From IMG/VR virus record IMGVR_UViG_3300009184_000047, positions 1 through 63,169 of that record: 63,169 bases of DNA. The stretch is one strand, 5' to 3'. The DNA comes from a virus (taxonomy: Duplodnaviria; Caudoviricetes). Position numbers and translations under genes: made by a program. The notes beneath the pieces are model-generated. The model had not been told where the DNA came from and did no database searches. It was given only the letters and a program-made list of their open reading frames with translations. Numbering within the stretch: the first letter of the stretch is position 1; every line of letters begins with the position of its first letter. Shown piece after piece: positions 14,385 through 60,678 of the stretch.

Positions 14385-15364
14385 TGCCATTTTTAGTTGA
14401 TGGAACCAATGGTAATCAGTTTGCTACTTGGACAACTGCTACCCGACCTTCTTCTCCTGTAACAGGACAGGTGGGTTATAACACTACTACAGGTCAATTA
14501 GAAGTGTATAACGCTACTTACTCAACATGGAGTACTGTTGGAACATCAGGAAATAATTATTCCGCTTCATACCTTATAGTTGCTGGTGGAGCAGGTGGAG
14601 GTGGTAACTGGGGCGGAGGAGGTGGAGCTGGTGGCTATTTAACTGGCACAGCAACACTTATTTCTGGTACAGTTTATACAGCTACAGTAGGTGCAGGGGG
14701 TATTGGTGGTAATAATTCAGTAGTTGCCACAAATGGAACAAATTCTACATTTACTGGCTTAACAACAGCTGTAGGTGGTGGTGCTGGCGGTGGTTCTAGT
14801 GCGCCTGCGGCTGTTTCAGGTGGTTCAGGTGGTGGAGCGCAAGGATCTACTAATTCAGCTGTTGGAGCTTCTGGTACTCCTGGCCAAGGTAACACTGGTG
14901 GGCCAGCTATAGGAACAAATATTAATGGCGGTGGTGGAGGAGGCTCTTCTGCTGCTGGTCAAGGTGGTGGTACAGGATCTTTAGGCACTGGTGGAGCAGG
15001 AACAGCTTCAAGTATTACTGGAACTCCAGCTACATACGCAGGCGGTGGAGGTGGCGGTGGATATAGCCCTCCTGGAGCAAATGGCGCTGCTGGTGGTTCA
15101 GGCGGTGGTGGTGCTGGAACAGGAGTTCCAAGTGGAAATGGTACAGCAGGAACAGTTAATACAGGTGGTGGTGGAGGTGGTTCTGGTGGAGGTGGTGCAG
15201 GCACAGGTGGTGCTGGTGGCAGTGGAATAGTAATTCTTTCAATACCAACTTCAAAATATACTGGAACCTATACAGGAACTTTAGCAAGTCCAGGATCACC
15301 GATAGTAAGTGGTGGCAATACAATATTAGCTTGGACCACAGGTTCAGGAACCTACACAGCATAA
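14384..15364 (+). CDS. Glycine-rich fibre-tip protein 3
   Basis: WTTATRPSSPVTGQVGYN N-domain plus the same Gly-rich domain. Confidence 0.75.
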   Translation: MPFLVDGTNGNQFATWTTATRPSSPVTGQVGYNTTTGQLEVYNATYSTWSTVGTSGNNYSASYLIVAGGAGGGGNWGGGGGAGGYLTGTATLISGTVYTATVGAGGIGGNNSVVATNGTNSTFTGLTTAVGGGAGGGSSAPAAVSGGSGGGAQGSTNSAVGASGTPGQGNTGGPAIGTNINGGGGGGSSAAGQGGGTGSLGTGGAGTASSITGTPATYAGGGGGGGYSPPGANGAAGGSGGGGAGTGVPSGNGTAGTVNTGGGGGGSGGGGAGTGGAGGSGIVILSIPTSKYTGTYTGTLASPGSPIVSGGNTILAWTTGSGTYTA

Positions 15365-15372
15365 GGTAAATT

Positions 15373-16359
15373 ATGGCATCAATATTAGACCCATTTAAAG
15401 GACAGACATTTCCAACCTGGACAACAGCTACTCGTCCAGCTTCTCCTATTACAGGTCAAGTAGGCTACAATAATACTACAGCTCAGCTAGAGGTTTATAA
15501 TACAATAGGTGGTTGGCAAAATGCAGGTACATCTGGTAATTTAGTTCCTGTTTCTTACTTGATTATTGCAGGCGGTGGAGGTGGTGGTGGATATCTTGGC
15601 GGAGGTGGTGGCGCTGGTGGATACTTAACTGGCACAGCTAGCTTAACTCCTGGAACAGTATACACAGCAGTTGTAGGCGGTGGTGGCGCAGGTGGTGCTA
15701 ATACCAGTGGAGCAGGAAATGGAACTGCTGGATCAACTTCAACCTTTACAGGATTAACTTCTGCTGTTGGCGGAGGTTATGGCGCTGGAGCTTATAATAC
15801 AGCAGGAGGATCTGGCGGATCTGGTGGTGGTGCAAGCAATAACTCTTCAACAGGCGCAGCTGGTGGCGCAGGCACTCCTGGACAAGGTAATAATGGTGGC
15901 GCTTCAACAGCTTCAACAGTTAATTATGGTGGCGGTGGTGGTGGTGGAGCAGGGGCTGTTGGTAGCAGTGCTGTAACAACAGTAGCAGGTGCAGGTGGTG
16001 CAGGAACTGCTAATTCAATTACTGGAACTCCAGCTACATACGCAGGTGGTGGCGGTAGTGGTAGTTATTTTAGTGCAGCTGCAGCAGGAGGATCTGGCGG
16101 TGGCGGTGCTGGCGGTAATCCAGCAACTGCAGGAACTGCAAATACAGGAGGAGGCGGTGGTGGTGGTGCATCAAATACTCCAGCTTCAGCAACAGCAGTA
16201 GGAGCCGCTGGTGGATCAGGCGTTGTCATTTTATCTGTGCCAACTTCAAGCTATTCTGGTACTTATACTGGAACTTTAGCAAGCCCAGGCGTACCAGTAG
16301 TAAGCGGATCAAATACAATATTAAAATGGACCACTGGTAGTGGTACTTATACGGCTTAA
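15373..16359 (+). CDS. Glycine-rich fibre-tip protein 4
   Basis: Same architecture as protein 3. Confidence 0.75.
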   Translation: MASILDPFKGQTFPTWTTATRPASPITGQVGYNNTTAQLEVYNTIGGWQNAGTSGNLVPVSYLIIAGGGGGGGYLGGGGGAGGYLTGTASLTPGTVYTAVVGGGGAGGANTSGAGNGTAGSTSTFTGLTSAVGGGYGAGAYNTAGGSGGSGGGASNNSSTGAAGGAGTPGQGNNGGASTASTVNYGGGGGGGAGAVGSSAVTTVAGAGGAGTANSITGTPATYAGGGGSGSYFSAAAAGGSGGGGAGGNPATAGTANTGGGGGGGASNTPASATAVGAAGGSGVVILSVPTSSYSGTYTGTLASPGVPVVSGSNTILKWTTGSGTYTA

Positions 16360-16368
16360 GGGAATAAA

Positions 16369-17277
16369 ATGGCTATAGTTATTGATGGAACAAAAGGTGA
16401 AAATTTTCCTACTTGGACGACAGCTACTCGTCCAACAAGCCCTTCTACTGGTCAAACAGGATACAATACTACTACGCTTCAATTAGAGGTATACAATTCA
16501 ACATATGGTAAATGGTTTTCAGTTGGTGTAGACCCATCTGCTCCCTATACTGCTACTTACTTGGTTATTGCTGGTGGTGCTGGTGGCGGTGCTAATGGTT
16601 TCCCAGGATCTAGATCAGGAGCTGGTGGTGGTGCTGGTGGTTATCTGACAGGCACCTTAAGTTTAACTCCAACTACAGTTTATACAGCTGTTGTTGGCGC
16701 TGGTGGACCAGGTGGCGTTACCCCTGCAGGTGTAGGTACAAACGGATCAGCTTCAACCTTCCCAGGTGTTACTGCAACAGTAGGTGGTGGAGGTGGTGGA
16801 TATTCAGGACCTGGCGGTGCTGGTGGTGGATCGTCTGGCGGATCTGGTGGTGGAGGTGGTCGTGATGCTGGTGGCGCAGGCACTCCTGGACAAGGATATA
16901 ATGGAGGCACAGGACCTGGAGGTAATCCTCCTTATGGTGGAGCAGGCGGTGGCGGTTCGGCTGCAGTAGGTGGTAACGGTGGAGGTGCTGCTGGAGGAGC
17001 TGGAACAGCAAACTCTATTACAGGTACTCCATCTACATATGCTGTTGGTGGAACTGGTAATGGAGCTGCGTTAGGAGCTAATAATACTGGTAACGGAGGT
17101 GGCGGTGGTGCTGCTGGACCTTCTAATGGTGGTAATGGAGGCTCTGGGGTAGTTATTTTATCTGTGCCTACAACTTCATATCCAGGAACTGTAACAGGCT
17201 CACCAACAGTGACAACATCAGGAAGTAATACTATAATTAAGTGGACTACAGCTGGGTCTGGAACATATACAGCTTAA
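16369..17277 (+). CDS. Glycine-rich fibre-tip protein 5
   Basis: Same architecture as protein 3. Confidence 0.75.
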   Translation: MAIVIDGTKGENFPTWTTATRPTSPSTGQTGYNTTTLQLEVYNSTYGKWFSVGVDPSAPYTATYLVIAGGAGGGANGFPGSRSGAGGGAGGYLTGTLSLTPTTVYTAVVGAGGPGGVTPAGVGTNGSASTFPGVTATVGGGGGGYSGPGGAGGGSSGGSGGGGGRDAGGAGTPGQGYNGGTGPGGNPPYGGAGGGGSAAVGGNGGGAAGGAGTANSITGTPSTYAVGGTGNGAALGANNTGNGGGGGAAGPSNGGNGGSGVVILSVPTTSYPGTVTGSPTVTTSGSNTIIKWTTAGSGTYTA

Positions 17278-18034: not shown

Positions 18035-18525
18035 TGTTTAGCATAATTAGTGGTATATTAGGCTTTGCCACATCTGGACTTCCAAGCCTATTATCTTTCT
18101 TTCAACAACGTGGAGATCAAAAGCATGAACGTGATATGGCTCAAATGCAAAATGAACAAACTTTGGCAATGGCTGAAAAAGGCTACCAAGCTCAACAAAA
18201 AGTAGAAGAAATTCACTTAGAACAATCCCAAGTAGAAGCATTTGCACAAGAAAGAGTAGCTTTATATGCACAAGCGTCTAAAGAATCTGAAGGTGCTTCT
18301 CAATGGATTATTAATTTAAGAGCCTCTGTAAGACCTATCATTACTTATATCATTGTATTTTTACTTGTGTTTGTAGATGTTGGTGGTTTTATGTGGGCTG
18401 TATTTGGTCATACTGGTGTTGATTTTCCAACTGCATTAAATGCAGTATTCTCAGAAACTGAGGAAGCTATATTAACTTCTATTATTGGTTTCTGGTTTGG
18501 TAGTCAAGCATTTAGTAAAAAATAA
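18034..18525 (+). CDS. Putative holin (3TM / GTA holin type)
   Basis: LRASVRPIITY...IIGFWFGS motif; directly upstream of the lysozyme gene. Confidence 0.7.
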   Translation: MFSIISGILGFATSGLPSLLSFFQQRGDQKHERDMAQMQNEQTLAMAEKGYQAQQKVEEIHLEQSQVEAFAQERVALYAQASKESEGASQWIINLRASVRPIITYIIVFLLVFVDVGGFMWAVFGHTGVDFPTALNAVFSETEEAILTSIIGFWFGSQAFSKK

Positions 18526-18971
18526 TGAATATATCAGATGTCGGTATATCCATTATTAAACAGTTTGAAGGCGTTCGTAATCGCCCCTATCGTGATTGTA
18601 TTGGGCTTTGGACTGTTGGTGTGGGTCATCTTATTGGGGATGGCAAATCATTGCCTGAATCTTGGAATAAAACTTTTACAGAAGAAGAAATAAATTCAAT
18701 ACTAAAGCAAGACCTAAAAAGGTTTGAAATTGGAATACATAGATTATTACCTAAAGTTATTCTTAAGCAATGCGAATATGATGCTTTGTGTAGCTTTACT
18801 TTTAATCTTGGTTTGGGAACATTACAGCGATCAACTCTCCGTCAAGCGTTGCTTAGAGGAGATAAAAAGACTGCTGGTGAAAAAATACTAAAGTACTGTT
18901 ACGCTGGTGGCAAGGTAGTTAAAGGCCTTCAGAAAAGAAGAATAGCTGAATATAACTTATTTAAACAATAA
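18525..18971 (+). CDS. Endolysin, GH24 phage lysozyme
   Basis: FEG...YRD...WTVGVGH catalytic E-D-T motif; FNLG; GLQKRR. Confidence 0.92.
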   Translation: MNISDVGISIIKQFEGVRNRPYRDCIGLWTVGVGHLIGDGKSLPESWNKTFTEEEINSILKQDLKRFEIGIHRLLPKVILKQCEYDALCSFTFNLGLGTLQRSTLRQALLRGDKKTAGEKILKYCYAGGKVVKGLQKRRIAEYNLFKQ

Positions 18972-18974
18972 ACT

Positions 18975-21545
18975 ATGCCATTACAAAAACTAACATATAG
19001 ACCAGGATTAAACCGTGAAGGAACCAACTATTCTAACGAAGGTGGTTTCTATGATGGTGATAAAATTCGTTTTAGATCTGGACAAGCTGAAAAGATTGGT
19101 GGATGGGTTCAGGTAGATTCAGACCAATATTTAGGATATGCTAAATCTTTATGGACATGGATTGATGTAGATGGACTGTCAAGCTACTTATCCCTTGGTA
19201 CAAACATTAAATACTATATATTTTTTGGTGGTTCTTATTATGACATTACGCCAATCTATAGAACAGATGGAACTGCTTTAGCAGCACCATACAACTTACC
19301 AGCAAGTCCATTAGCTACATCTAATGGATCTCCACTTGTTACTATTACAGACAATAATTACAATCCATCTGTAGGTGATTATGTAATCATTACAACTACA
19401 GCATCTGTAGGTGGATTAACTATTTCTGGTGAATATACAGTCACTGCTGTAACAAGCACTACAACATATCAAATTACTGCATCATCTAATGCATCCTCTA
19501 ATGCAACGGGTGGTGGTACAGTAGTTATTAAATATGAATATCCAATAGGAGCTTCATCAGCTATTCCAGGGTTGGGCTGGGGTGCTGGACCATACTCACT
19601 TACAATTCCAGTAGCATTAGGCGCAAATCCATTTCTAACCTCATCTAGTGGATCTACAGTCACAGTAACACAAACAGCTCATGGATTAAGTAACGGTAGT
19701 TATGTAGCCTTTTTAGGACCATCTACCAATACGCCTATATATTCAACGCCAGCATTTAATGGCATCCCAAAAGCAGCATTACAAGGTACATTTGTTATTA
19801 GTAATGTAGCTACTAATACATATGACATTAAGCTTCCAGAAGAACCAGCAGGCTCATTTACTATAGGACAAACCTATACTATTGCTACAGCAGGTACTAC
19901 AAGCTTTACAGCGATTGGTGCCGCTAATAATACACCTGGTACAGTATTTACAGCTACGGGTCGTGGATCTGGTACAGGCACTGCTTATATTACAGCTACA
20001 TCAGCTAGCTCTGGTGGTGGTTCTGGTATTGTAGCCTACCCACAATATGGTTCACGTGGATGGGGTACAGCAGCATCTACAGGTATTTCTGGCTCTATTA
20101 GACTCTGGTCAAACGATAACTATGGTGCAGACCTTGTGATTGCTCCTCGTGGTGGTCCTATTTATTATTGGCAAGATAGTTTAGGTGTTTCAGTAAGGGC
20201 ATCTAGTGTAGCTACATTAGCTAATGCAGCACAGTTAGCATCAAGCACAGCTACATTTGCAGGTAGTGCATCTACTATTACAGTTATTAATCCAAATAAT
20301 ATTCTGCCATATTCTTATATCACTGGAACAAATATTGCATCTGGAACTTACGTTACTAGCGCCTATGTGCCAGGATCAACATCAGTTCCGCTTTCAGCAG
20401 CAACTACTGGAGCTAATGATGCTAACGCTTATTCATTTTCATACGCAGGTTCATTTGTACCTAACTCAACTAATCAAGTTATTACATCATCTATCCAACA
20501 GTTTATTATTGCATTAGGTGCTAACTCATATAATCCAACTAATCCAAGTACTGCATTCAATCCAATGTTAGTACGTTGGTCAGATCAAGCAAATCCATAT
20601 CAATGGGTGCCACAAGTCACTAATCAGTCTGGTGAATATGCGCTTACTAATGGCTCATATATTATGTGTGGTACAGCTACACGCCAAGAAATTTTAATAT
20701 GGACTAATTCATGTCTATATTCAATGCAATATGTAGGCTATCCATATGTATGGAGTTTCCAAGTATTAATGGATAATATATCTATTATTTCGCCTAACTC
20801 TGCTGTTACAGTTAATAATGTAACTTATTGGATGGGTAAAGATAAGTTCTACATGTACACTGGTGTGGTCCAAACCTTACCATGTTCATTAAGACAATAT
20901 GTATTTAATGACTTAAATGAAGATCAAGCATTCCAAATATTCTGTGGATCCAATGAAGCATTTAACGAGGTTTGGTGGTTTTATTGTTCATCAGACTCAA
21001 CGGTTATAGACAAATATGTCATATATAACTATTTAGATAAAGTATGGTCATATGGAACAATGGGAAGAACAGCATGGTTGCAATATGGTATTAACCCATA
21101 TCCAGTTGCAGCAGATTATAATTCAAGACTTTTATATCATGAGGTAGGAACAGATGATGTTGCAACAGCAAGCCCACAACCTATTGACGCATACGTACAA
21201 TCTTCTGACTTTGGCATTGAGGCTGGTGATCATCTTGGCTTTGTATGGCGTGTGTTGCCTGACGTCAATTTCAATGGCTCAACCATTAATAATCCAAGCG
21301 TTACTATGACGCTTTATAGTAAACAAAACTCTGGCGCAACACCAATTCAAGGTGATATTGATACTGTTACAAGCGGACAAAACTATACATCAACGCATCA
21401 ATATACAGTACAAACATTTAGTGGACAAGTATATACTAGAGTGCGTGGAAGACAATTAAGCTTTAAAATACAATCTACTGGATTAGGCACAGCTTGGCAA
21501 CTTGGCATTCCTCGTATAGATGTTAAACCAGATGGAAGAAGATAA
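18975..21545 (+). CDS. Tail nozzle / tubular protein B-like (DNA stabilisation) protein
   Basis: 856-aa beta-propeller-like sequence (KIGGW, VRWSDQ, FNEVWWFY) located before the ejection genes. Confidence 0.65.
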   Translation: MPLQKLTYRPGLNREGTNYSNEGGFYDGDKIRFRSGQAEKIGGWVQVDSDQYLGYAKSLWTWIDVDGLSSYLSLGTNIKYYIFFGGSYYDITPIYRTDGTALAAPYNLPASPLATSNGSPLVTITDNNYNPSVGDYVIITTTASVGGLTISGEYTVTAVTSTTTYQITASSNASSNATGGGTVVIKYEYPIGASSAIPGLGWGAGPYSLTIPVALGANPFLTSSSGSTVTVTQTAHGLSNGSYVAFLGPSTNTPIYSTPAFNGIPKAALQGTFVISNVATNTYDIKLPEEPAGSFTIGQTYTIATAGTTSFTAIGAANNTPGTVFTATGRGSGTGTAYITATSASSGGGSGIVAYPQYGSRGWGTAASTGISGSIRLWSNDNYGADLVIAPRGGPIYYWQDSLGVSVRASSVATLANAAQLASSTATFAGSASTITVINPNNILPYSYITGTNIASGTYVTSAYVPGSTSVPLSAATTGANDANAYSFSYAGSFVPNSTNQVITSSIQQFIIALGANSYNPTNPSTAFNPMLVRWSDQANPYQWVPQVTNQSGEYALTNGSYIMCGTATRQEILIWTNSCLYSMQYVGYPYVWSFQVLMDNISIISPNSAVTVNNVTYWMGKDKFYMYTGVVQTLPCSLRQYVFNDLNEDQAFQIFCGSNEAFNEVWWFYCSSDSTVIDKYVIYNYLDKVWSYGTMGRTAWLQYGINPYPVAADYNSRLLYHEVGTDDVATASPQPIDAYVQSSDFGIEAGDHLGFVWRVLPDVNFNGSTINNPSVTMTLYSKQNSGATPIQGDIDTVTSGQNYTSTHQYTVQTFSGQVYTRVRGRQLSFKIQSTGLGTAWQLGIPRIDVKPDGRR

Positions 21546-24111: not shown

Positions 24112-26340
24112 ATGTTTAACAATAAATTTAGAATAGGTGTATTACAACATCCTGGATATCACAAGGGTAAAGGTGGTGGGGGTGGATCTGCTGCGCCAAC
24201 TACAAGCACATCTTATTCTACCAATGTTCCAGAATATGCACGTCCTTATGTAGAGAACATGCTTAATGCAGCACAGTCTCAAATCTATACGCCTGACATG
24301 GCAGGATTTAATCCTTATACACCTTACAGTAGCAATCCTACAGACTATATAGCTGGCTTCTCTCCAATGCAAGAGCAAGCATTCACTACAGCTGCTGGCA
24401 TGAGAGTGCCTGGTCAATACGGAACAGCGACTCTAGGAACTTTAGGTGGTATGGCTGGCCTAGCTGGTGTTGAATCTGGCATGGGTAATGTAGGTTCAAA
24501 CTATGCACGTATGGCTACAAGCCCATATGCTATGTCAGCATATATGAATCCATATGTTAATGCAGCCTTAGCTCCAGAACTTCAATTAGCTAACCAACAA
24601 TACGATATAGCTGGTCAAAAACAACAAAGTCAAGCAGCACAACAAGGTGCATTTGGTGGTAGTCGTGAAGCGCTTATGGGTGGTTTAAACAGACAAAATC
24701 AAATGTTAGCTCAAAACCAATTGATTGGTCAGGGTTATAACAAAGCTTTTGATGCAGCACAACAAGCACAACAATTTGGTGCCAACTTAGGCCTTCAAGG
24801 TTTACAAGGTCAGCTTGCAACTAACCAAGCATTCTTAGGTGGTGCAAATCAATTAGCTGGTATTGGTGGCGCACAACTTGGCGCACAACAAGGTATTGCT
24901 AACTTACAAAATCAATTTGGTCAACAACAGCAAGGCCAACAACAAAATGTTATCAATCAAGCAGTTCAGGATTACGCAACTGCTCAACAGTATCCGTTCA
25001 TGCAATTGGGTCTGCTCAACTCTATGTTGCGTGGTCTTCCAATGCAACAATCTTCTACACAGATGTATCAAGCAGCTCCAAATCCAATATCACAAATTGC
25101 TGGTCTTGGTTCTGCAGCTTATGGTTTATTTGGCGGTGGTGGCAAAAAAGATGGTGGAGTCATTAAAGCAGCTGGCGGCATTCCTATGTCACACTTTAAT
25201 AAAGAACAATTAGATAAAGTACAACAAAGCCCATACTCAACACCTTTAGCTAAAATGGTAGCTAATGGAGAGTTAGGTATAGATAATTATATTAGAGCTA
25301 ATCCAGAAGCTAAAAGTTTATTTGCACAGAATATGCAACAACTTCCACAAACGCCTCCTACCCCTATGCAAACAGCTATGATGCCACAAACTAGAGCTGG
25401 TTTAGATAACATTGGCACTGGTGAAATGACTCAAATGGCAGGTGGTGGTTTACTAGCATTCGTAGGTGGTGGTGATACATCCTATGATGGTGTCAATCTA
25501 CCAACTCCAGGCCCAACAACCGGCATGGGAATGGATCCAATGAAAGCAGATGCTGAAACATTAATTAGACAAGAGTTATTATCTTCAAGGCCTGAAAGTG
25601 AAGCCGCTCAAAAACAAAGAGAAGCTTTAGAAGCAAGTATTGCAAAAAGTGAAAAATCTAGAGGCTCAGATAAATGGACAATGTTAGGTCTTAATTTAAT
25701 GGCTCAAACAGGTCCGTTTGCATTAACTAATTTTGGTAACGCTGGATTAAGCACTCTTAAATATATTTCAGAACAAGAAGATCTTACTGATAAAGATCGT
25801 AAAGAACTTCTTAAATTTGCAGTTGAGCAAGATAAGAACAAGCTTACACGTGATGATATGTTACGTACAGGGCTTCTCACAGCTGAAACAAATAAAGCCA
25901 TGAAAGAATTGACAGCATCAAATGAAAGACGTAGAAATCAAGATGCATCAGATATTAAGAATGAGCAATTGCTTCAAAAGTATACTGCTGATTTTGGCTC
26001 TAAGCTTGATGCTGAAGAGAAAAGAATACTTGCAGCTGCTAAATACTCAGGTTATACTCCTGAATATATACGTGCATTAGCTTACAATAATGTGGTTTCT
26101 ATGTCACCACAAAAAATGCTAGATCTTCTTGGTAAGCAACCTATACCTAAAGATCAAATGCCACCCCCTAAACCAATAAGAGCGCCAGAACCTCCTGGCT
26201 TTGGTACAAGAGCTGCAGATTATTTTTTTGGTGATAAACAAGCACCAGCAGCAGCGCCTGCCGGACCAAAAACAGGTGATACAAAGGTTATTGGTGGCGT
26301 AACATATGGATATGACGGCAAAGGCTGGCTGCCACAATAA
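24112..26340 (+). CDS. Putative ejection (DNA transfer) protein
   Basis: Gln/Ala/Gly-rich, GAFGGSR motif, coiled-coil segments. Confidence 0.65.
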   Translation: MFNNKFRIGVLQHPGYHKGKGGGGGSAAPTTSTSYSTNVPEYARPYVENMLNAAQSQIYTPDMAGFNPYTPYSSNPTDYIAGFSPMQEQAFTTAAGMRVPGQYGTATLGTLGGMAGLAGVESGMGNVGSNYARMATSPYAMSAYMNPYVNAALAPELQLANQQYDIAGQKQQSQAAQQGAFGGSREALMGGLNRQNQMLAQNQLIGQGYNKAFDAAQQAQQFGANLGLQGLQGQLATNQAFLGGANQLAGIGGAQLGAQQGIANLQNQFGQQQQGQQQNVINQAVQDYATAQQYPFMQLGLLNSMLRGLPMQQSSTQMYQAAPNPISQIAGLGSAAYGLFGGGGKKDGGVIKAAGGIPMSHFNKEQLDKVQQSPYSTPLAKMVANGELGIDNYIRANPEAKSLFAQNMQQLPQTPPTPMQTAMMPQTRAGLDNIGTGEMTQMAGGGLLAFVGGGDTSYDGVNLPTPGPTTGMGMDPMKADAETLIRQELLSSRPESEAAQKQREALEASIAKSEKSRGSDKWTMLGLNLMAQTGPFALTNFGNAGLSTLKYISEQEDLTDKDRKELLKFAVEQDKNKLTRDDMLRTGLLTAETNKAMKELTASNERRRNQDASDIKNEQLLQKYTADFGSKLDAEEKRILAAAKYSGYTPEYIRALAYNNVVSMSPQKMLDLLGKQPIPKDQMPPPKPIRAPEPPGFGTRAADYFFGDKQAPAAAPAGPKTGDTKVIGGVTYGYDGKGWLPQ

Positions 26341-26347
26341 TAAATAA

Positions 26348-29300
26348 ATGGCTAACATTACTCCAACAGTTAATGTTACACCCGAAGAGCAACCAAAGTA
26401 CGTAACAGATCCAGAATTACTTAAAGAGCTTAATTCGGTTGGAACACCCAAGTCAAGTGCCGCAGGGTACGTGACAGATCCTGAGCTGTTAAATCAGCTC
26501 AACGCCCCTGCTCAACCTAAAATTCAACAGCAATCTTTAATTACGCCAGAAATGCTTCAGGGCAAAGCCGAAGCTCCAGGCAATACAAGTCTTGCAGATT
26601 TCCTAGTACACCCTATTGATACACTCACTGGCAAAGATAAGGTTAGCGATCAAAGCTTAAATGATCTTGTAACGGGACAAGAACTACCTGGTGGCAGTCA
26701 TCCTTTCTTAGCATCTACCGCTAAGGGCATTATGAACTTTAAGTCCATGGTGAATGATCAATTCATATCAGAAATTCTTCCACTAATAGAAGATCATAAG
26801 AGACAATATGGCCTTAACTATGAAAAAGCCACCCCAGAACAACGTAAAGACTTCTTAAACTCTGAGGCTGAACTAGCTACACATCTTAATAAACAAGCGC
26901 AATATAATAAAGATGTTGAGGCTGTGACTAAAAAGTATGGCACAGATGACTTCTCTAAAAAGGCAGATAGCTTATATTCTAAGCCTGAATTTCAAGAAGC
27001 ATCTCCGTTAAAACAATTTCAAATGTATGGTAATTTAGTCTTATCTCACCCTGCAGACTTGCCAGCACATATTGCTACAGTATCCCTAGAAAGTTTACCA
27101 ACGTCATTAACTTCTATTGTTGCCGCAACTATGGCAAACTTTATGAAGTTAGGCCCATCAGGAGCTGCTTATGCAGGTGGTGCAGCATCAGGTGCAACTG
27201 AGTTTGCTACAGAATATGTAGACTTAAGACAACAAGGTAAGTCCCATGAAGAGGCTACCATGCAAGCCGGTGTTAAATCTACTCTAATAGGTAATATGGA
27301 TGCTAGATCCTTTGATTCAGCTGGTAAAGCTCTAGATAGAATCATGGGCCAAGTAGACAAAGGTATTGTAAAACGTGTATTAAGTACTGCTAAAGAGACT
27401 GCCAAAGAATTAAATAAACAAGGTATGTATGGTGCAGCGGGTGAAGTATTAGGTTCAATTGCCAGCGGACAAAAGGTAGATCCTAGAGCAGCGCTAGACG
27501 AATACTTTGGTGAGCTTGCTACAGGTCCATTAGAAGCATTAACTACCTATCGTGGCAAGTTAGCAGAAGAACAAGCTGCAGGCGCACCACCAGCACCACC
27601 AGGTACTCCACCACCAGGAGGAGGCGCACCACCAACACCAGGTGCTATTAGTGATACTGAGTTTGATGTTGCAGATATTCCTGGCACACCACCAACTACA
27701 CCACCACCAGCTACGCCAGCAGTAGAACCTGAAAAAACTCTTGAAACTAACCAGGCCTTACCTATTGTTCCAGAACTACAATCTAAAGTAGATGAATATT
27801 CTGAGTTATTAAAAAAATACGATCCAGTTGCATATACTCATATGATGGCTGATATAAATAATGGTCTTATTCAATCAGAAGATAGTTTAAAAGAGTATAA
27901 AAGATCATATGATGAGATTGTAAAAGCAAGACAAAAACGTGCAGAACTAGAACAAGAAAAAAATGATTTGGCTAAAGATTTAATAGCTACAGACTATGGA
28001 AGATCATTAAATATAAAATGGGATAAAGGTGAAATTAAAACATTAGAAGATCTTCAGCCATTTAGAGATCTAGTTAGAGAAAAAGCAACTAGAAATGTAT
28101 TAAAAGCTCAAATGGCGCCTAAGTCAATAGAAGATAAAGCCGTTGAAAAAGAAGCTAGGGAATTACAATCTGAAATTTCAAAATACAATCCATCATTTGC
28201 AGAAGGAATGAAATCTGCAATTGATAAAGGATCTGTTCAAACCAGCGAAGATTTAGATTTTTATAAACGTAGATTACAAGAGTATAAAACTAGATCTGGA
28301 GAAGAAAAATCTACAATTAAAGAAACTTATGGTTGGAAATCTTTTTATGATGATGAAGCAGAACTTGCTGATAAAGAAAAAACATTAGCCAATGCACCAC
28401 AATCTATAAAAGACAAAGTAGCAAAAGCAGATCAACTTATACAAAAAATAGCTGATAAAGTAAATGAAGCTGGTTATTCTATGGTTTTTTCAGGGGAAGC
28501 ACCAGATAATATTAGAAATCTTCAACGTAGAGCATCTGGCATATCGGGAACTATAGCAGCAGTTCTTAACAAATCTAAAGCAATTCAAAAAAATTATAAG
28601 AGAGCTAATCCAGAAAGGCTTGATCAAAGATTGTCTGATCTTGAAGAAGAAGCTCAAGGTAGTGTAAGTGATTTAAATCAAGTAGATGTTACATCTATGA
28701 AACTTAATAAGTTGCTTGACGCTGAAATAAAAACTGCAACTCAAGAAGGCCGTGGTCAGGATATACTTGATAAATTAAGTGAAGATAATATAACACCCAA
28801 GAGTGTTGCCAACAAATTCTGGGATGAAACTTACTTTAAGTTGCCAGCAGAAACTCAATCATATTTTAGAAAATATCTAAATAAACTTACAAGCTTTAAA
28901 CCTGGAAGCGTATTAGCTGTAGATAGAGAAGGTAATAGTGTTATTGCTAAAGACTGGATTGAAGTTGGAAAAGATCATGCTATTGATTTAGGTAATGACG
29001 CAGAAAAATTAGAAGGCACAGAACGTGGTTATGTAGCTTTAATGGATGAAGCCAATAGAAGAATGGCAGAGAAAAAAGAAGCTCAACCAAAGATTGCTGC
29101 ATTAAAAGTTGCAATTGATGATTATGTAACATTTAAAGAGCCTGTTATTCAATACAAAGGTAATCAGCCATTTAAAGCAGAAAAAACTATACGTGGCAGA
29201 GTTGTATCAATTAAACCTAATGGCGACTTGGAATTAAAAAGTATTGAAGGTTATTATACAAAACCAGTATCTGAAGTTACAGCAGAACAAAAAGAAGTTA

Positions 29301-32300
29301 CTCCTCAAGCTGAAGAAAAACCAGCAGTAAGATATGATCCATCTACAGATAAATATACTGGAAATATAAAGCTTGGTGATACAGTAAGCGATGGCAAAGA
29401 TAACTTTATTGTTACAAGAAGATCTGGCTATCTATTAGAAGTAGATAAAGTTACCCCAGAAGGAAGAAAGGTTTATGGATCTATTAATGTTGATCCTACA
29501 TCTACTGAATTTAAAAGTGATTTATATAAAGTAGCTGAAGCACCCAAGATAGAGGAAAAGAAACCGGAAGAAAAAGAAGATATTGATCAAAAAGACTATG
29601 ACCTTATTAAGTATGTAATTACCCATAATAAACCATTATCTAAGTTTAAATATATTCAAGAAGGAAGCCAAGGTGTTGGATTTCCTGTATGGATAAAAGT
29701 ATTAAAAGATCTTGGATATACTCCAGAAATAAAGCCAGTGAAGGTGATTGGCGGAGAAGAAAGATATAAAGATTTTATTTACGTTCCAGAGCTTGATGAA
29801 TCAGTAAATCAAGAAATTAAAAAACCAAAGGTTGAAGAAAAACCTACTGGAGAATTAAAGTCATTTCCAAAAGATATTCAAGTTAGACTTGAGCGCTTAC
29901 ATCGTCTTGCTACTTTAGCTGAAAAAAAAGTAATGGATAAGCCACTTACAATGAATGATGTTGTAAATGCTTATAACAGAGCTGAAGATTCTAAAAAAGA
30001 AGAGACTCTGGCAAACACTGAAAAGAGTATGGCTAAACAAGCCGAAGACAAGCTATTACTTAAGATTGAAAAAGAATATGTAACGCAGTTTGAATCCATG
30101 CCACCAAAGAAACAAGGATTAATTGCAGCAATCAAGAATGGTTCTCTTGATATATCTAAACAAGAATGGGCTAAAGATGCATACGATCTATTTAAAATTA
30201 AACAAGTTAAGGCGGCTACAAAACTAGAAGGTGTAAGTGATCCGGTTGCAGAACAGTTAAAGAAATTTAATGCTGGTGATTATAGAATGCCAGAAAAAGT
30301 ACGTGGAACAAAAGATGAATCGCTTCAGATGTCTGGCACACCAAGCGCAAAATACGCAGAAGAAGAAAATGAACGCAATTTTAAAGTTTATGAAGAGGCA
30401 GCTAAGTTATTCTTAGAAGGCCCATTGGATGCTAAGCCAGAAAAAATTCTTGAGACTGAAGGATTTAAAGATAATAGTATACAGCCACAACCAATTGAAA
30501 AGAAATCAGCGGATAAAGCTATTGCTAACGCTGAAGAACAAAACAAAGTTATATCTGAAATCATTGATAAAAAAGATGTTAGATATTATTTGGGTGGCAT
30601 ATTAATAGATCGTGAGAATGATCGCATGGTTACATGTGATGGTCACAGAGCAACTATATTAAAGAAACCAGATTACTCAAGCGTTCCTAATCCACCAGAA
30701 AAAACAACGGGTGATTTAATATTAAAAGATGATGGAACATGGATAGATGGTAAGTATCCTGCTATTGATCGAATTATCCCTGAATCACATGCTGATAATA
30801 AAATAACAGTTAATGCCAAAAATATTGCAGACTATGCTCGTGGAATTGAAAAGGCTAATAAGTTTCTTAAGTCTGACGAAGTATTTAGTATTTTTCTTCA
30901 AAATCCAGATGCATTTGGTACATTTAACGCTAAGTTTATTAGACAAATGGGAGACTTGTTTAGAAGATTTGGATATAAAGATATTATCTTAAGCCTTGAT
31001 GAGGGTAAAAAGCTATTTGCCACTTCCCCAGACGGTAAGTTGTCTCATATTGTTATGGGAATTAGAAGTAAAAATGAAATATTTAAAACATTCAGCAAGA
31101 TATTTAAGGTAGAAAAAGCCAAGGGAGCTAGAGGTGATGGTCAAACTATTGAGTCAATTAAAGACCGCATCATTAGAGAATTTGGTAGAAGCGTTCAACA
31201 GTTATTTAAAGATGGTGTTATTGTTGTAGTCAATACTGTTGCAGAGCTTGATCCAAAATACCAAAATGAACTAGACGCACAAGACAAAGCTTTCTTTGAT
31301 AAAGAAACTGGTGTGGCTTACATCATTGCTGATCGTGTATCTGCCGGTGATGTACGTGCAGTAGTGCTACATGAAGTTGGTGAACACTATGGCCTACGTG
31401 GCATGTTAGGTGAAAAGGTATATAACCAACAACTTGAGAATCTTAAGAAACAAAAAGACCGTGACATCATTGTAGCTAAAGCATGGGAGCATGTATTAAA
31501 GAACTATGCTAACTTACTTGAGACAGATGAAAAACAATTCTTACGTGAAGTGATGGCTCGTATTGGTGAAAGCGCACCAACTCACAATCTATTCCAACGC
31601 ATTAAGACAGCAATTAAAACCTTCCTAGTTAAGAAAGGCATTATTAAAAACTTAACGGGTGCAGAGCTACAGGATCTTGTTATGAGATCATTACATACAG
31701 TTGTTAAAGGTAGACGTGTATTGAGCAGTGGCACTGGATTAGAATCAGCCCGTGGACCAAGTGAACCAGATGCTAAACGTGAACTTGATGATGAGTTTAG
31801 AGCTAATGATGTTCCAGACGCACCATTCAACAATCAAAAAGATATTGCAGATAAGCTTACAGAAAATATTGGCGAAGCTAAAAAAGTAATTAGAGATGTA
31901 GCTGCTGCACCTAAACAATCTGGCATAAAGATGATTAGTGGATTAGATAAAGCCCTTACTACATTCAGAGTTAAGAACGTATTCTTTGGTGCCGGCATTG
32001 AAGAGACTGAAGCTAAAAAATATGCAGGAAAACTAATTGATGCCATGGGTAAGGCGGTTGCATCTGTATCATTAACCAATGCAATTCATGCTGGCCACAT
32101 TGCTGCCAATGTAATGGATTTAGGTAAACTTACATTTAATCAAGCAACGCAAATGTTCCAAGCTGTAAGATCTCAATTCAGTATGAGCAACGTATTTAAG
32201 CTTGAAAGAAAACTATTTAAAAAGCTAGGAAAACAAACTGCAACTAATTTAATCAATACATTCTTTGAGGCTAAACGTGCAAGAAGTATTCAAAATGAGT

Positions 32301-34564
32301 ACTTGAATAGAGAAGCTGAATTAGAACGTGCGCTTGATGCAAAAGAAGATCCTGAAGTAGCTCAACGTAACTATGAATCTATTGTAAAAGCTTATAAGAA
32401 AATACCAGAATATTTCCAACGTAGAAATGCTAATGGCGATCTAATGTTTACAGACGTGATTGAGAATGGTGAGATTGTAGATCAGTTACCAATCCTTAAT
32501 GATGATGTGATTGATGATTACATAAGAAAAGACCAAGACTTCCCAGAGCTAAAAGAAATGATGGATAACTGGACTGCCGTTAATCATAACATGATCGATA
32601 ACATGGTATTTGCTGGCATCATGAGTGAGAAACGTGGAGCTAATCTTAAATCAATTAAAGACTATGTGCCATGGTTCCGTATTCAAGATGATGCTGAAGA
32701 GTTGCATGCACCATCAAATTTTGTGGCTGGCCTTACAAATATCAGTAAAGAAAGAGTATTCCGCAAAGGTGCTGTGTCTGCACGTATTGATAACATGATT
32801 GATAACATGGTTTATAACACCATGATGATGACTCGTAACTCTATACGTAACTATGGCGCATTACAAATTGCTAAAGCATATGCTACTCGTAAACCAAATG
32901 GCAAGCTTCAAGTGTTTCCTAAAGAAGGTGTAATGCCGGATGGGGCAGTTAGAACTAACATCTTGGTTAATGGTAGACGTATTATTATTGAGATTAAAGA
33001 TCCGAATCATGCAGCTGCATTGATGGGACTTGAAAACTTAGAGCTTCCTATCCTAGATGTGTTAAGTAGTTTCTCTCAAGGTTTAAGACGTGGCGTTACA
33101 ACCAACCCATTCTTCCAATGGTGGCAGGTTTGGAAAGACGCACCTACAGCTGCAGCAGTTACAGGACTTAAGAGTCCATTAAAAGTTTGGGGAAAAATAT
33201 TAGGCAGCTTCTTTAGCGCCTTGAATCCTAACGATCCTATAGTGCAAACACTAAAATCATATGGTATCGGTGGCTTCCAAAGCTCAGGTAGAACAGCAGA
33301 AAAAGAAGTAGGTTTAACAAGGGGTCAAGCCCTTATGAATATTGGCCCATGGATCTTAAAAATATTAGATCATATTGGTGATGCTTCAGACTATGCTCAA
33401 CGTAGAATTATTTATCAAGAAGTATTAAAACAAGGTGGCACTGAGATGGAAGCTCTATTTAGAGCCAATGCTGTTATTGACTTCTTGCGCCATGGCAATA
33501 GTAAAAATGCGCTGATGCTTGTAAGAACAGTAACGTTTATGAATGCTTACATCCAACAGATTGATGTATTAGCTACATCTATGGCAGGTGGTGGATTTAA
33601 GGGCTTGGATAGGAAGAAAGCCAGGGAAAGATTCAGAAGAACAACATATACATTAATTGCTGTAGGTTTATTATATTGCATGATGAAAGGTGGTGATGAT
33701 GATTATGATAAGCTTGATGACCAAACTAAGATGAGAAACTTTATCATCGGTGACATGAAGATACCTATTAATACATCTTATGGCTTTATGTTTAAAGCTC
33801 TACCTGAAATGATATATAACTATATTATTAAACATGGAACAGACAATGCTATTGATGGAACACGATTAAGAAAAGCTTTAATGAAAGCAGCATTTGATTC
33901 GTTGCTTGGGCCTAATCCAATTCCTACGGGTGTTAGAGCGCCAGTTGAAATTATATTAAACCATGATTTCTTTACTGGTGGCACAGTGACTCCAAAAGGT
34001 ATGGAAACCTTAGATACGTATATGCAATATACAAGTTCAACATCTAACCTAGGAAAGCTAATGAGTCATCTTACACTTGGAACATTGAATCCAATTGAGT
34101 CTGATCACTTAATGAGAGGTTTATTTGGCACAGTTGGATCAACTGCTGGATGGTTATCTGATATGTTTACCAGTGACAAGCCAGAAAGAGTATGGGCTAG
34201 AAACCCAGTAATAGGTCAAGTATTCTTACCGCCTGAACCACGTGGCCGTGAAGATCTATTCTACGAACTTAAACAACGTTCAGATAAATCCTATAATACA
34301 TGGGAAACTCTTAATAAGAGAGGCCGTGCAGATGAGGCTGAGAAATACTTTGATAAAAATAAATCAACGATTATGGTACATGACTATATAACAAATGCTG
34401 AAGCTGGTTTAAAAGAGATTAATGCAGAGATAAGAAGACTATCTGACGATCCTAGATTAACATCAGCAGAAAAACGTGAACAAATTACTATATTCCAACA
34501 ACAAAAGAACAATATATTAGAAAGTGTTAATCAGGAACGTCTCCGGGCTGAACGATCTGAGTAA
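26348..34564 (+). CDS. Giant polyvalent ejection protein (beta-clamp-like domain, zincin-like motif, probable LPD38-type C-terminus)
   Basis: 2738 aa, last gene of the virion module; DVRYYLGG...TCDGHR; LHEVGEHYG; C-terminal helical region. Confidence 0.75.
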   Translation: MANITPTVNVTPEEQPKYVTDPELLKELNSVGTPKSSAAGYVTDPELLNQLNAPAQPKIQQQSLITPEMLQGKAEAPGNTSLADFLVHPIDTLTGKDKVSDQSLNDLVTGQELPGGSHPFLASTAKGIMNFKSMVNDQFISEILPLIEDHKRQYGLNYEKATPEQRKDFLNSEAELATHLNKQAQYNKDVEAVTKKYGTDDFSKKADSLYSKPEFQEASPLKQFQMYGNLVLSHPADLPAHIATVSLESLPTSLTSIVAATMANFMKLGPSGAAYAGGAASGATEFATEYVDLRQQGKSHEEATMQAGVKSTLIGNMDARSFDSAGKALDRIMGQVDKGIVKRVLSTAKETAKELNKQGMYGAAGEVLGSIASGQKVDPRAALDEYFGELATGPLEALTTYRGKLAEEQAAGAPPAPPGTPPPGGGAPPTPGAISDTEFDVADIPGTPPTTPPPATPAVEPEKTLETNQALPIVPELQSKVDEYSELLKKYDPVAYTHMMADINNGLIQSEDSLKEYKRSYDEIVKARQKRAELEQEKNDLAKDLIATDYGRSLNIKWDKGEIKTLEDLQPFRDLVREKATRNVLKAQMAPKSIEDKAVEKEARELQSEISKYNPSFAEGMKSAIDKGSVQTSEDLDFYKRRLQEYKTRSGEEKSTIKETYGWKSFYDDEAELADKEKTLANAPQSIKDKVAKADQLIQKIADKVNEAGYSMVFSGEAPDNIRNLQRRASGISGTIAAVLNKSKAIQKNYKRANPERLDQRLSDLEEEAQGSVSDLNQVDVTSMKLNKLLDAEIKTATQEGRGQDILDKLSEDNITPKSVANKFWDETYFKLPAETQSYFRKYLNKLTSFKPGSVLAVDREGNSVIAKDWIEVGKDHAIDLGNDAEKLEGTERGYVALMDEANRRMAEKKEAQPKIAALKVAIDDYVTFKEPVIQYKGNQPFKAEKTIRGRVVSIKPNGDLELKSIEGYYTKPVSEVTAEQKEVTPQAEEKPAVRYDPSTDKYTGNIKLGDTVSDGKDNFIVTRRSGYLLEVDKVTPEGRKVYGSINVDPTSTEFKSDLYKVAEAPKIEEKKPEEKEDIDQKDYDLIKYVITHNKPLSKFKYIQEGSQGVGFPVWIKVLKDLGYTPEIKPVKVIGGEERYKDFIYVPELDESVNQEIKKPKVEEKPTGELKSFPKDIQVRLERLHRLATLAEKKVMDKPLTMNDVVNAYNRAEDSKKEETLANTEKSMAKQAEDKLLLKIEKEYVTQFESMPPKKQGLIAAIKNGSLDISKQEWAKDAYDLFKIKQVKAATKLEGVSDPVAEQLKKFNAGDYRMPEKVRGTKDESLQMSGTPSAKYAEEENERNFKVYEEAAKLFLEGPLDAKPEKILETEGFKDNSIQPQPIEKKSADKAIANAEEQNKVISEIIDKKDVRYYLGGILIDRENDRMVTCDGHRATILKKPDYSSVPNPPEKTTGDLILKDDGTWIDGKYPAIDRIIPESHADNKITVNAKNIADYARGIEKANKFLKSDEVFSIFLQNPDAFGTFNAKFIRQMGDLFRRFGYKDIILSLDEGKKLFATSPDGKLSHIVMGIRSKNEIFKTFSKIFKVEKAKGARGDGQTIESIKDRIIREFGRSVQQLFKDGVIVVVNTVAELDPKYQNELDAQDKAFFDKETGVAYIIADRVSAGDVRAVVLHEVGEHYGLRGMLGEKVYNQQLENLKKQKDRDIIVAKAWEHVLKNYANLLETDEKQFLREVMARIGESAPTHNLFQRIKTAIKTFLVKKGIIKNLTGAELQDLVMRSLHTVVKGRRVLSSGTGLESARGPSEPDAKRELDDEFRANDVPDAPFNNQKDIADKLTENIGEAKKVIRDVAAAPKQSGIKMISGLDKALTTFRVKNVFFGAGIEETEAKKYAGKLIDAMGKAVASVSLTNAIHAGHIAANVMDLGKLTFNQATQMFQAVRSQFSMSNVFKLERKLFKKLGKQTATNLINTFFEAKRARSIQNEYLNREAELERALDAKEDPEVAQRNYESIVKAYKKIPEYFQRRNANGDLMFTDVIENGEIVDQLPILNDDVIDDYIRKDQDFPELKEMMDNWTAVNHNMIDNMVFAGIMSEKRGANLKSIKDYVPWFRIQDDAEELHAPSNFVAGLTNISKERVFRKGAVSARIDNMIDNMVYNTMMMTRNSIRNYGALQIAKAYATRKPNGKLQVFPKEGVMPDGAVRTNILVNGRRIIIEIKDPNHAAALMGLENLELPILDVLSSFSQGLRRGVTTNPFFQWWQVWKDAPTAAAVTGLKSPLKVWGKILGSFFSALNPNDPIVQTLKSYGIGGFQSSGRTAEKEVGLTRGQALMNIGPWILKILDHIGDASDYAQRRIIYQEVLKQGGTEMEALFRANAVIDFLRHGNSKNALMLVRTVTFMNAYIQQIDVLATSMAGGGFKGLDRKKARERFRRTTYTLIAVGLLYCMMKGGDDDYDKLDDQTKMRNFIIGDMKIPINTSYGFMFKALPEMIYNYIIKHGTDNAIDGTRLRKALMKAAFDSLLGPNPIPTGVRAPVEIILNHDFFTGGTVTPKGMETLDTYMQYTSSTSNLGKLMSHLTLGTLNPIESDHLMRGLFGTVGSTAGWLSDMFTSDKPERVWARNPVIGQVFLPPEPRGREDLFYELKQRSDKSYNTWETLNKRGRADEAEKYFDKNKSTIMVHDYITNAEAGLKEINAEIRRLSDDPRLTSAEKREQITIFQQQKNNILESVNQERLRAERSE

Positions 34565-34904
34565 TCACTACGTCACAAGATCCACCCTTAGTAACATCCA
34601 TCCTAGTAATACATAACTTATCTATTTGAGAATCATTCTCATATACTCCAGCATGTTCTAATGCATCTAACAATGGCTTTAGCACGTTATCTACATCACG
34701 CTTCCTATTATCGGGAGGGTATAGGTATACCTCCATCTTCAATCGTGCGTTTAATGGGCCTTTACGTGCGTTATAGGCACATAAAAACACAGCTTCTCTA
34801 AACTCTTTTCCTTTCTTTCCTAAAAACTTCTTAGAACCTAGCTGGCCCCAATAGTGATTTACGGTAGGAGGATAGGGTAATGTTATTTTGAGTTCGGATG
34901 TCAT
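34527..34904 (-). CDS. rusA: RusA-family Holliday junction resolvase
   Basis: LPYPPTVNHYW and RDVDNVLKPLLDAL...NDSQI motifs; start revised to MTSELK. Confidence 0.9.
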   Translation of the reverse strand: MTSELKITLPYPPTVNHYWGQLGSKKFLGKKGKEFREAVFLCAYNARKGPLNARLKMEVYLYPPDNRKRDVDNVLKPLLDALEHAGVYENDSQIDKLCITRMDVTKGGSCDVVITQIVQPGDVPD

Positions 34905-34911
34905 AAGTGTT

Positions 34912-34941
34912 ATTATAGCAGATGAATTAATATAGGTACAA
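34912..34941 (-). promoter_or_regulatory. Sigma70-type promoter for rusA
   Basis: TTGTAC-18 nt-TATAAT with TGn extension on the minus strand. Confidence 0.6.
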
Positions 34942-34945
34942 CCTA

Positions 34946-34974
34946 TTGACATGTATTTTATTCTATGCCACTAT
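34946..34974 (+). promoter_or_regulatory. Sigma70-type promoter for the rightward recombination operon
   Basis: TTGACA-17 nt-CACTAT with TG extension. Confidence 0.5.
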
Positions 34975-38900: not shown

Positions 38901-39524
38901 ATGAAAGATCCAAACTTTGAATTATTATTTCCAACTCCAGTTATGTTTAATGATATTGGAAGGGACTTTACAGAAGTTGAATTAGAGTTTATTAAGAAGC
39001 ATGGAAAAGAAGGTATGACAAATCGCAATGTAGGCAATGTCACATCCAACAATAACTATATTCTAAATGAGCCAGAGCTTGCTGATCTTAAGAAAGATGT
39101 TACGGAGCATATCAATGAATACGTTAAACGAGTCTATAAGCCTAAATACCCAGCAGAAGCATTTGTTACTCAATCTTGGCTCAACTACACAGCAAAGGGT
39201 GAGTTTCACCACAAGCATGAGCATCCCAACAGCTTCATCTCTGGAGTATTATATATCCATACAGACGCTTCAAAGGATAAGATCACATTCCATAAATCTG
39301 GATATCAACAAATTCAACTGGTGTCAGATACTTTTGATGTTTACAATTCTTCTTCTTGGTGGTTTAATGTAAAACCTGGTGGTATTGTAGCATTTCCATC
39401 AGGCTTAACGCATCATGTAGAAGATGTAGTAGCAGACGAAACACGTGTTAGCCTAGCATTTAATTCATTTATTAAAGGCACAATAGGCGACAATAAATCA
39501 TTAACGGAGTTTATCAATGCATAA
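38901..39524 (+). CDS. 2OG-Fe(II) oxygenase-like protein (TIGR02466 type)
   Basis: LFPTP, HEHPNSFISGVLY, FPSGLTHHV and RVSLAFN motifs. Confidence 0.85.
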   Translation: MKDPNFELLFPTPVMFNDIGRDFTEVELEFIKKHGKEGMTNRNVGNVTSNNNYILNEPELADLKKDVTEHINEYVKRVYKPKYPAEAFVTQSWLNYTAKGEFHHKHEHPNSFISGVLYIHTDASKDKITFHKSGYQQIQLVSDTFDVYNSSSWWFNVKPGGIVAFPSGLTHHVEDVVADETRVSLAFNSFIKGTIGDNKSLTEFINA

Positions 39525-40083
39525 CCTAGAAGATTACATCAAGATCTATCCAGTATTAGATGAAGCATTTTGCAGTAAAGTCCAAGAAGAACTTAAGTCA
39601 GCTACATGGAAGCAACATGAATTTTATAATCCAGCTGATGGAACCTATGGACCACAAAGTGGAAATCGTGAGCTTGATGTATCTTGGGATGATATTCCTA
39701 GTCGTCAAGAACTTACACAAAAGGTATGGGAAACTATATCCCAATACATTATTACCGATATGAATAAATCCTATTACAATGGCTGGTCTGGATTTACTCA
39801 TGTTAGATTTAATCGTTATTATCCAGATAGGCTCATGGCTTTACATTGTGATCATATCCATTCTATGTTTGATGGCAATACCAAAGGTATTCCAACACTT
39901 AGCGTATTAGGATCATTAAACAATGATTATGAAGGTGGCGAGTTCCTTATGTTTGATGATGAAAAGGAATATAAGCTTAAAGCTGGTGAGATTATGGTAT
40001 TTCCATCAGTATTCTTATATCCGCATAGAGTAGCACCAGTAACTAAAGGTGTTAGAGATACATTTGTTTCTTGGGTTTGGTAA
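39517..40083 (+). CDS. 2OG-Fe(II) oxygenase, prolyl-4-hydroxylase-like
   Basis: HCD...LNNDYEGGEF...FPS...HRVAPVTKGVR. Confidence 0.88.
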   Translation: MHNLEDYIKIYPVLDEAFCSKVQEELKSATWKQHEFYNPADGTYGPQSGNRELDVSWDDIPSRQELTQKVWETISQYIITDMNKSYYNGWSGFTHVRFNRYYPDRLMALHCDHIHSMFDGNTKGIPTLSVLGSLNNDYEGGEFLMFDDEKEYKLKAGEIMVFPSVFLYPHRVAPVTKGVRDTFVSWVW

Positions 40084-60493: not shown

Positions 60494-60678
60494 GTGAATT
60501 AGATGCAGTAGTAAATGAAATTAATGCTCAAGTAGCAAATCTACAAGAACATTTAGGTACAGGCGCAGCCAAAGACTTCGCTGAATACCAAAATATGTGC
60601 GGAAAGATATCAGGTCTTCTATCCGTATATCGTTATATCAAGGACCTAAAACAACACATGGAGAACTCAGATGAGTGA
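60490..60678 (+). CDS. Small portal-adjacent protein
   Basis: Y...CG.I.GL motif; coupled. Confidence 0.65.
   Translation: MSELDAVVNEINAQVANLQEHLGTGAAKDFAEYQNMCGKISGLLSVYRYIKDLKQHMENSDE

Follow-up and report, generated by a model that had tools for sequence, protein, structure and literature searches.

The β sliding clamp DnaN of Escherichia coli (PF00712, PF02767 and PF02768) is a chain of about 366 residues built of three similar domains, and it dimerizes head to tail. Two contacts hold the dimer together: I78 and F106 of domain I pack on I272 and L273, and K74, R96, R103 and R105, also of domain I, pair with E298-E304 (PMC11139829). A hydrophobic pocket between domains II and III is the docking place of clamp-binding motifs (CBMs; Q-φ-x-L-F). 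As described in section 11 of PMC11139829, subsite I of this pocket is formed by R152, L155, T172, G174, H175, R176, L177, P242, R246, V247, V360 and M362, and subsite II by H175, N320, Y323, V344, M362, P363, M364 and R365. The engineered variant I272A/L273A retains the three domains and the pocket and is unable to close the ring; this monomeric β still binds DNA, and it binds δ about 50-fold tighter than the dimer does (PMC11139829). Truncated DnaN relatives of 175-250 residues, or mini-clamps, are encoded by free-standing phage genes such as that of Serratia phage Eta gp10, a 'putative beta-clamp protein'. Polyvalent proteins form a class of giant multidomain polypeptides, including P1 Dar and N4 virion RNAP-like proteins, which are encoded in a virion-gene setting and have been proposed to be packaged and injected with the DNA (PMC5512222; Iyer et al. 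2017). Here we describe a DnaN-derived module located within a 2738-residue polyvalent-type protein of a virus of the Caudoviricetes (Duplodnaviria), IMG/VR record IMGVR_UViG_3300009184_000047. The window, meaning the whole stretch of DNA that was analysed, is the complete length of this virus record (63169 bp), which CheckV estimates to be 99% complete.

The module consists of a core, a family-specific extension preceding it and a short tail following it. Coordinates are those of the window, and residues those of the giant protein.

26348..34564, + strand: polyvalent-type open reading frame (ORF) of 2738 residues bearing the clamp module, from the ORF call
30140..30508, + strand: family-specific N-terminal extension, residues about 1265-1387 (~120 residues), delimited by alignment and AlphaFold2 (AF2)
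30509..31069, + strand: DnaN-derived core, residues 1388-1574, delimited by sequence profile, AF2 and structure alignment
31070..31108, + strand: C-terminal tail (..NEIFKTF..), family consensus φ-F-[KA]-P-φ
30569..30598, + strand: motif KKDVRYYLGG, residues 1408-1417
residues 1427-1435, + strand: motif MVTCDGHRA
residues 1467-1478, + strand: motif DGKYPAIDRIIP
residues 1526-1531, + strand: motif FNAKFI
31046..31066, + strand: motif HIVMGIR, residues 1567-1573

A sequence-only reading of this DNA had proposed a clamp-like domain here from five motifs, all of which lie in the frame of the giant ORF (residues 1408-1573, nucleotides 30569-31066) and recall DVRYYLNG, ATDGHR, G.FPDY.RV.P, FN..Y and VVMP.R of DnaN. 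It located the domain correctly but began it at position 30540, one base out of frame, where translation runs into stops; the codon begins at 30539, and the offset does not matter to the identity of the domain.

Homology to DnaN is detectable from the window sequence itself. Compared as a single sequence with the chains of the PDB, residues 1381-1587 give 25 matches at E≤10, all 25 to β sliding clamps (best E 9.6e-5), with alignments falling at β residues 148-191 and 235-258. Curated family models score the module under their cut-offs, at 15.2 bits for PF02767 (cut-off 27) and 27.5 bits for TIGR00663 (cut-off 137.65). A profile of the window domain and 39 homologous segments (alignment A1, 40 sequences) matches solved β clamps with an E-value of 2e-20 over β 145-365. 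The AF2 model of the core computed from the same alignment has a predicted local distance difference test (pLDDT) score of 90.3 and a predicted template modelling (pTM) score of 0.84. Searched with Foldseek, this model gives 284 matches at E≤0.001, and the top matches listed are all β clamps (E 5e-9). VIA-align superposes model residues 8-194 on E. coli β 128-366 with Z 15-16 and a root-mean-square deviation of 2.5-3.1 Å over 164-170 residues (about 3.0 Å over ~167). On the strength of these two structural comparisons, the core corresponds to β domains II and III in reduced form, domain II being predicted to comprise one helix and five strands and domain III two helices and six strands. The DnaN-like fold anticipated from the motifs is thus borne out by profile, model and superposition alike, and it is secure that residues about 1388-1574 are a true, diverged DnaN homologue.

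What the module has lost is equally well defined. Domain I is absent, as there is no PF00712 match and the structural alignment begins at β 128. About 29 residues of domain II (β about 204-232) and the 20-residue segment β 297-316, which carries E298, E300, E301, E303 and E304, have no counterpart in the family profile. The three-domain architecture is therefore not retained, nor is the head-to-tail interface, and a canonical ring cannot form since both domain I and the acidic dimer-interface strand are missing. These missing parts would also exclude the encircling of DNA. The designation 'clamp mimic' given to the domain in the sequence-only reading consequently stands for the fold and the pocket but not for the ring, for which domain I, half of domain II and the interface strand are wanting. 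Compared with the engineered monomeric β, the phage module is natural, is reduced to ~1.5 domains and is known from sequence and model.

The pocket between domains II and III is the best-kept feature of the family. Its positions were transferred to the window protein through the profile-to-β alignment, by which 17 of the 18 could be mapped, V344 not being counted.

R1412, L1415, C1430, G1432, H1433, R1434, A1435: pocket residues
P1471, R1475, I1476, N1527, F1530, I1568, M1570, G1571, I1572, R1573: further pocket residues

Ten of these 17 residues are identical to β, four are conservative replacements (V247I, Y323F, V360I and M364I) and three differ; the hallmark motifs do align with β-clamp pocket residues, as had been claimed. 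The family consensus equals β at most pocket positions. Counted over the 40 sequences, the β residue is kept at M362 in all 40, at R152 in 39, at G174 and P242 in 38 each, at L155 in 34, at H175 in 33, at T172 in 32, at Y323 in 31 and at R176 and R246 in 29 each, with K in place of R246 in 6 more. The subsite II residues N320, Y323 and R365 are conserved as well. Pocket positions make up 9 of the 25 best-conserved columns of 181 (hypergeometric p 5.2e-5), and their mean conservation is 0.70 against 0.41 for the remainder (Mann-Whitney p 3.5e-6), though these columns overlap in part with the structural core and with the motifs on which homologue detection depends. As regards fold and homology, the module is securely a ring-incompetent, pocket-preserving DnaN derivative; what it does can be proposed from its context.

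This context is that of polyvalent proteins. The giant ORF lies between virion- or ejection-like genes, which precede it, and recombination and replication genes, which follow it (exonuclease, Erf, helicase and primase), in a record that also holds terminase and portal genes. Pfam scans recognize in the 2738-residue protein LPD38 as the sole family above threshold, which together with the DnaN module is all that can be recognized in it.

18525-18971: endolysin, upstream neighbour
18975-21545: virion structural protein, upstream neighbour
24112-26340: 'DNA ejection protein'-like ORF (phrog_4287), upstream neighbour
33695..34210, + strand: LPD38 domain (PF18857), residues 2450-2621, 79.8 bits against a cut-off of 27
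34527-34952, - strand: RusA resolvase ORF (PF05866, E 2.7e-15)

LPD38 marks phage-type polyvalent proteins and is listed as phage-only (PMC5512222), and its C-terminal position together with the upstream virion genes supports the polyvalent, virion-gene setting that the sequence-only reading had assigned to the giant protein. The RusA ORF is genuine and converges on the giant ORF, overlapping its last 38 nt.

A HMMER search of 1.84 billion representative sequences retrieved 72 proteins at E≤1e-3, of which 43 reach E≤1e-10 and 5 reach E≤1e-30; 38 of the 72 are at least 900 residues long. Domain scans covered 63 homologues, 33 of them large, and 30 of these 33 carry polyvalent-protein families: LPD38 (13 proteins), LPD1, LPD3, LPD23, LPD37, LPD39, ART-PolyVal, InPase, DarA_N, PBECR1/3 and MuF_C. 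YkuD, GNAT, DUF6884 or N6 methylase domains are found in other homologues. The module is thus a recurrent cassette of phage polyvalent proteins, and the survey of such proteins that had been suggested as a check confirms its recurrence. One homologue of 687 residues carries two tandem copies of the module, four others (508-770 residues) have it split by an insert of ~25 residues, and in a further viral record a full-length DnaN-like region lies within an ORF of at least 938 residues. A 631-residue protein encoded at positions 358-2253 of a 64-kb viral record (L089) bears the extension and the module at its extreme C-terminus; of the complete contexts observed for the polyvalent-type module, this is the shortest.

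The replication genes of the virus bear on the use to which such a pocket could be put. It encodes a helicase, a primase, Erf, an exonuclease and RusA. Family A, B and C DNA polymerases (PF00476, PF00136 and PF07733) have no match in the whole window, whose 67 ORFs include no member of a polymerase family; the earlier statement that the phage lacks a polymerase holds for this 99% complete record. None of the six related IMG/VR records carrying the module encodes a polymerase of these three families either, and three of the six are 100% complete (44, 85 and 90 kb). For comparison, 48 phage or prophage records of IMG/VR with other DnaN-like genes were considered, these genes being either standalone mini-clamps of 175-290 residues or full-length clamps of 350-420 residues. 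A family A polymerase is present in 12 of the 48 comparators, and in 9 of the 28 that are complete, while family B and C polymerases are found in none of the 48. All 12 comparators with a family A polymerase belong to the standalone mini-clamp class.

The binding of a host partner was addressed by structure prediction. The module (alignment A1) was folded by ESMFold2 with residues 900-945 of the E. coli Pol III α subunit, a segment chosen since we take it to contain the internal QADMF motif. The prediction, for which no interface was reported, scores 0.40 against 0.02 for the best control, with at least 70% of contacts agreeing between runs and a partner pLDDT of at least 48. Of 157 solved complexes 116 attain the same mark, as do 2 of 215 mismatched pairs; at scores up to 0.60, the mark is reached by just 18 of the 157 solved complexes and by both passing mismatches, and these calibration counts are only rough because an alignment of our own was supplied. 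The prediction thus lends weak support to binding between the module and α.

We propose that the module is a CBM receptor acting in trans that recruits the host replisome, a reading to which we assign a probability of roughly 0.4. The giant protein would be packaged in the virion and delivered into the cell together with the DNA, in line with what has been proposed for polyvalent proteins at large. Its module would then act as a monomeric CBM receptor, binding host proteins that carry such motifs. Most likely, it would serve to catch the Pol III holoenzyme of the host, or its clamp loader, by the CBMs of α or δ at the entering genome, since the phage brings a helicase and a primase, along with Erf, exonuclease and RusA, yet encodes no DNA polymerase. 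A basic helix, R-G-x-x-K-A-x-K/R followed by Y or F, is conserved where β has its I272/L273 helix and may lie on DNA. Of the whole proposal, recruitment is what we are least sure of.

Several considerations weigh against it. Monomeric β cannot tether Pol III for processive synthesis (PMC11139829), and by analogy a clamp that is not a ring would be unable to confer processivity. An injected protein is present in few copies, and the packaging of this one is deduced only from gene order and family. The window pocket itself carries the replacements T172C, L177A and P363G. Because the pocket columns partly coincide with detection motifs and structural core, their conservation is no proof of a ligand in trans. 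The lack of a polymerase fits recruitment but does not discriminate, since the comparators are mostly devoid of family A, B and C polymerases too: all three families are absent from 19 of the 28 complete ones, and the correlation is not significant. The α partner is an E. coli stand-in that may not be that of the host, and the favourable complex prediction may reflect memory, many β-peptide complexes having been solved. Finally, the conserved φ-F-x-P tail that follows the last pocket strand could occupy subsite I in cis.

This tail and the N-terminal extension bring us to the alternative that we rate highest, although we hold it to be unlikely: the module would be a self-contained structural or assembly domain serving the folding, packaging or assembly of the giant protein, with no host target. 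Its pocket would be filled in cis by the tail or by an ordered N-terminal loop, or else by a peptide of another ejection protein; in a variant of this scheme, the plug would be a latch displaced by host ligands. The tail phenylalanine lies 5-12 residues past the equivalent of β R365, adjoining the pocket. Found in 34 of 45 sequences and almost without exception in a 10-sequence alignment (A3), it is predicted to form a β-bridge in the AF2 model, where local pLDDT is about 78. An LF dipeptide alone can bind subsite I (PMC11139829). The extension offers a second candidate plug. Conserved directly before the core in 34 of the 72 retrieved proteins, it is most widespread over window residues about 1275-1400, with the motifs GSLDIS, F.AG.F, Y.EAAK.FLEG.LDAK and P.PIEK. 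Residues 1265-1590 modelled with AF2 from a 15-sequence alignment (A4) give a pLDDT of 84 and a pTM of 0.80. The extension is predicted to be mostly helical, with one long loop that appears ordered (pLDDT 82-86) despite having no secondary structure. As to a partner within the virion, a scan of the window proteome for strict CBM-like motifs matches one sequence only, QLGLL at residue 298 of the neighbouring 742-residue ORF, and none at any C-terminus.

Against such a plug, the contact between tail and pocket is a putative feature of the model, and the tail phenylalanine is missing from 11 of the 45 sequences. The subsite II residues are conserved, which a plug of two residues would not need. 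The α peptide is moreover still placed by ESMFold2 with the tail present, though this is a weak prediction. The extension was also considered as a diverged domain I of DnaN and rejected as such: it is helical, and only residues 128-310 of the model align to β clamps.

The module could also be a decoy or inhibitor competing with the host β clamp for CBM proteins such as Hda, MutS/L, translesion polymerases, δ or a CBM-bearing defence factor, by which host replication or repair would be shut down or defence blunted. We judge this rather improbable. The pocket evidence serves it as well as it serves recruitment, and nothing in the analysis separates the two. Its homologues associate the module with counter-defence or host-modifying domains (DarA_N, ART-PolyVal, PBECR nucleases and N6 methylase). 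We know of no CBM-dependent defence system, and stoichiometric sequestration by a few virion copies is implausible for most CBM proteins. The tight binding of δ by monomeric β (PMC11139829) speaks for a decoy.

Very unlikely, in our estimation, is a DNA-binding saddle or unconventional oligomeric clamp, in which the concave helical face would sit on phage DNA, or single-stranded DNA would occupy the pocket, and several copies might assemble on DNA in open or closed form. In its favour, the first helix of domain III retains basic residues (R in 37 of 45 sequences, K in 35 and K/R in 38), monomeric β binds DNA, single-stranded DNA can occupy the pocket, as with primed DNA in a β crystal (PMC11139829), and standalone mini-clamps sit in phage replication modules, for instance in Serratia phage Eta, but the DNA contacts R24, R73 and R80 of β belong to the missing domain I (PMC11139829), and the conserved helix may instead be a protein interface, because β makes its I272/L273 dimer contact there. 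The remaining probability goes to explanations other than these.

Recruitment by a pocket acting in trans can be given a more specific form, which we think rather unlikely. A monomeric 'half clamp' delivered by the virion would seize scarce Pol III holoenzyme or clamp loader through the CBM of δ or α at the moment of DNA entry, and the φ-F-x-P tail might be a latch displaced by the host ligand.

The known systems closest to this module differ from it in ways that can now be listed. With respect to DnaN, it lacks domain I, ~29 residues of domain II and the 20-residue acidic interface strand, and it is embedded in a 2738-residue protein with an N-terminal extension and a C-terminal tail. The mini-clamps gathered in phrog_3007 match residues 1408-1508 (E 1.2e-11) over profile positions 19-151 of 190, a partial match within a larger protein and not a full-length one to a free-standing gene. 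They are replication-module genes, as in Serratia phage Eta, where the gene lies between a ParB-like gene and a helicase; some contain a complete PF02767 domain II, and they lack the N-terminal extension by which polyvalent-type modules are typically preceded. The label of phrog_3007, 'RusA-like Holliday junction resolvase', looks wrong, since its members are β-clamp relatives. Relatives in cultured phages are standalone genes of ~180 residues only (29 records, at most 56% query coverage, 31-36% identity), annotated as 'RusA-like', 'DNA polymerase III beta subunit' or 'putative beta-clamp protein'.

Outside metagenomes, the polyvalent version is practically absent. The extended module is found in just 7 IMG/VR records, the window counted. 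A megablast of the giant ORF for cultured-phage relatives found nothing, and tblastn with one other family member gave no match; with another it gave two uncultured faecal 'Bacteriophage sp.' records and one partial Burkholderia phage match. Of 10 homologue clusters, none bears a source name other than 'hypothetical protein', and the ESM Atlas leads only to small viral clusters, among which one has the name 'DNA polymerase III, beta subunit'. There is no Pfam model for the module. The terms 'clamp', 'DnaN', 'sliding' and 'Pol III' do not occur in the main text of PMC5512222, and a DnaN-derived module does not appear to be among the domains named there. Full-text searches of the literature found neither polyvalent nor ejection proteins described as containing a domain derived from a clamp. 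The module is thus an un-modelled cassette, absent from the literature searched.

Other features of the giant protein and of the genome complete this description.

31370-31387: HEVGEH motif, residues 1675-1680, of HExxxH type
12266-17277, + strand: five tandem paralogous ORFs of 302-328 residues, all matching phrog_2295 and Pfam Gly_rich_2
3576-4520 and 5503-6423, + strand: two ORFs with an SU10 adaptor protein domain (PF24175)
38901-40083, + strand: two adjoining 2OG-Fe(II) oxygenase ORFs
60671-61081, + strand: GroES-like co-chaperonin beside the portal gene

The 461 residues downstream of the module have no significant Pfam or PDB match. The region around HEVGEH (residues 1625-1763), likewise without Pfam or PDB match, has phrog_873, labelled 'endolysin', as its sole match. 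A zincin reading of the motif fails because it is HExxxH and not HExxH. A conserved link between the module and zincin peptidases was rejected: of 37 large proteins, just 9 have an HExxH motif in the 400 residues downstream, and its distance from the module varies. The five Gly_rich_2 paralogues are probably diversified tail or receptor-binding proteins, and the two SU10 adaptor protein domains suggest an SU10-like podovirus tail architecture.

The module adds an unannotated cassette of ~300 residues to the repertoire of polyvalent proteins. In addition it represents, in natural and monomeric form, a minimal β-clamp pocket, which may be of use as a reagent for CBMs and for antibiotics that target this pocket. 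How phages that encode no polymerase capture the host replisome after entry is poorly understood, and an injected pocket module would be a direct and testable answer. If it does operate in this way, the half clamp would be without precedent as an injected factor that recruits the replisome, and would define a new functional class of DnaN-derived polyvalent module.

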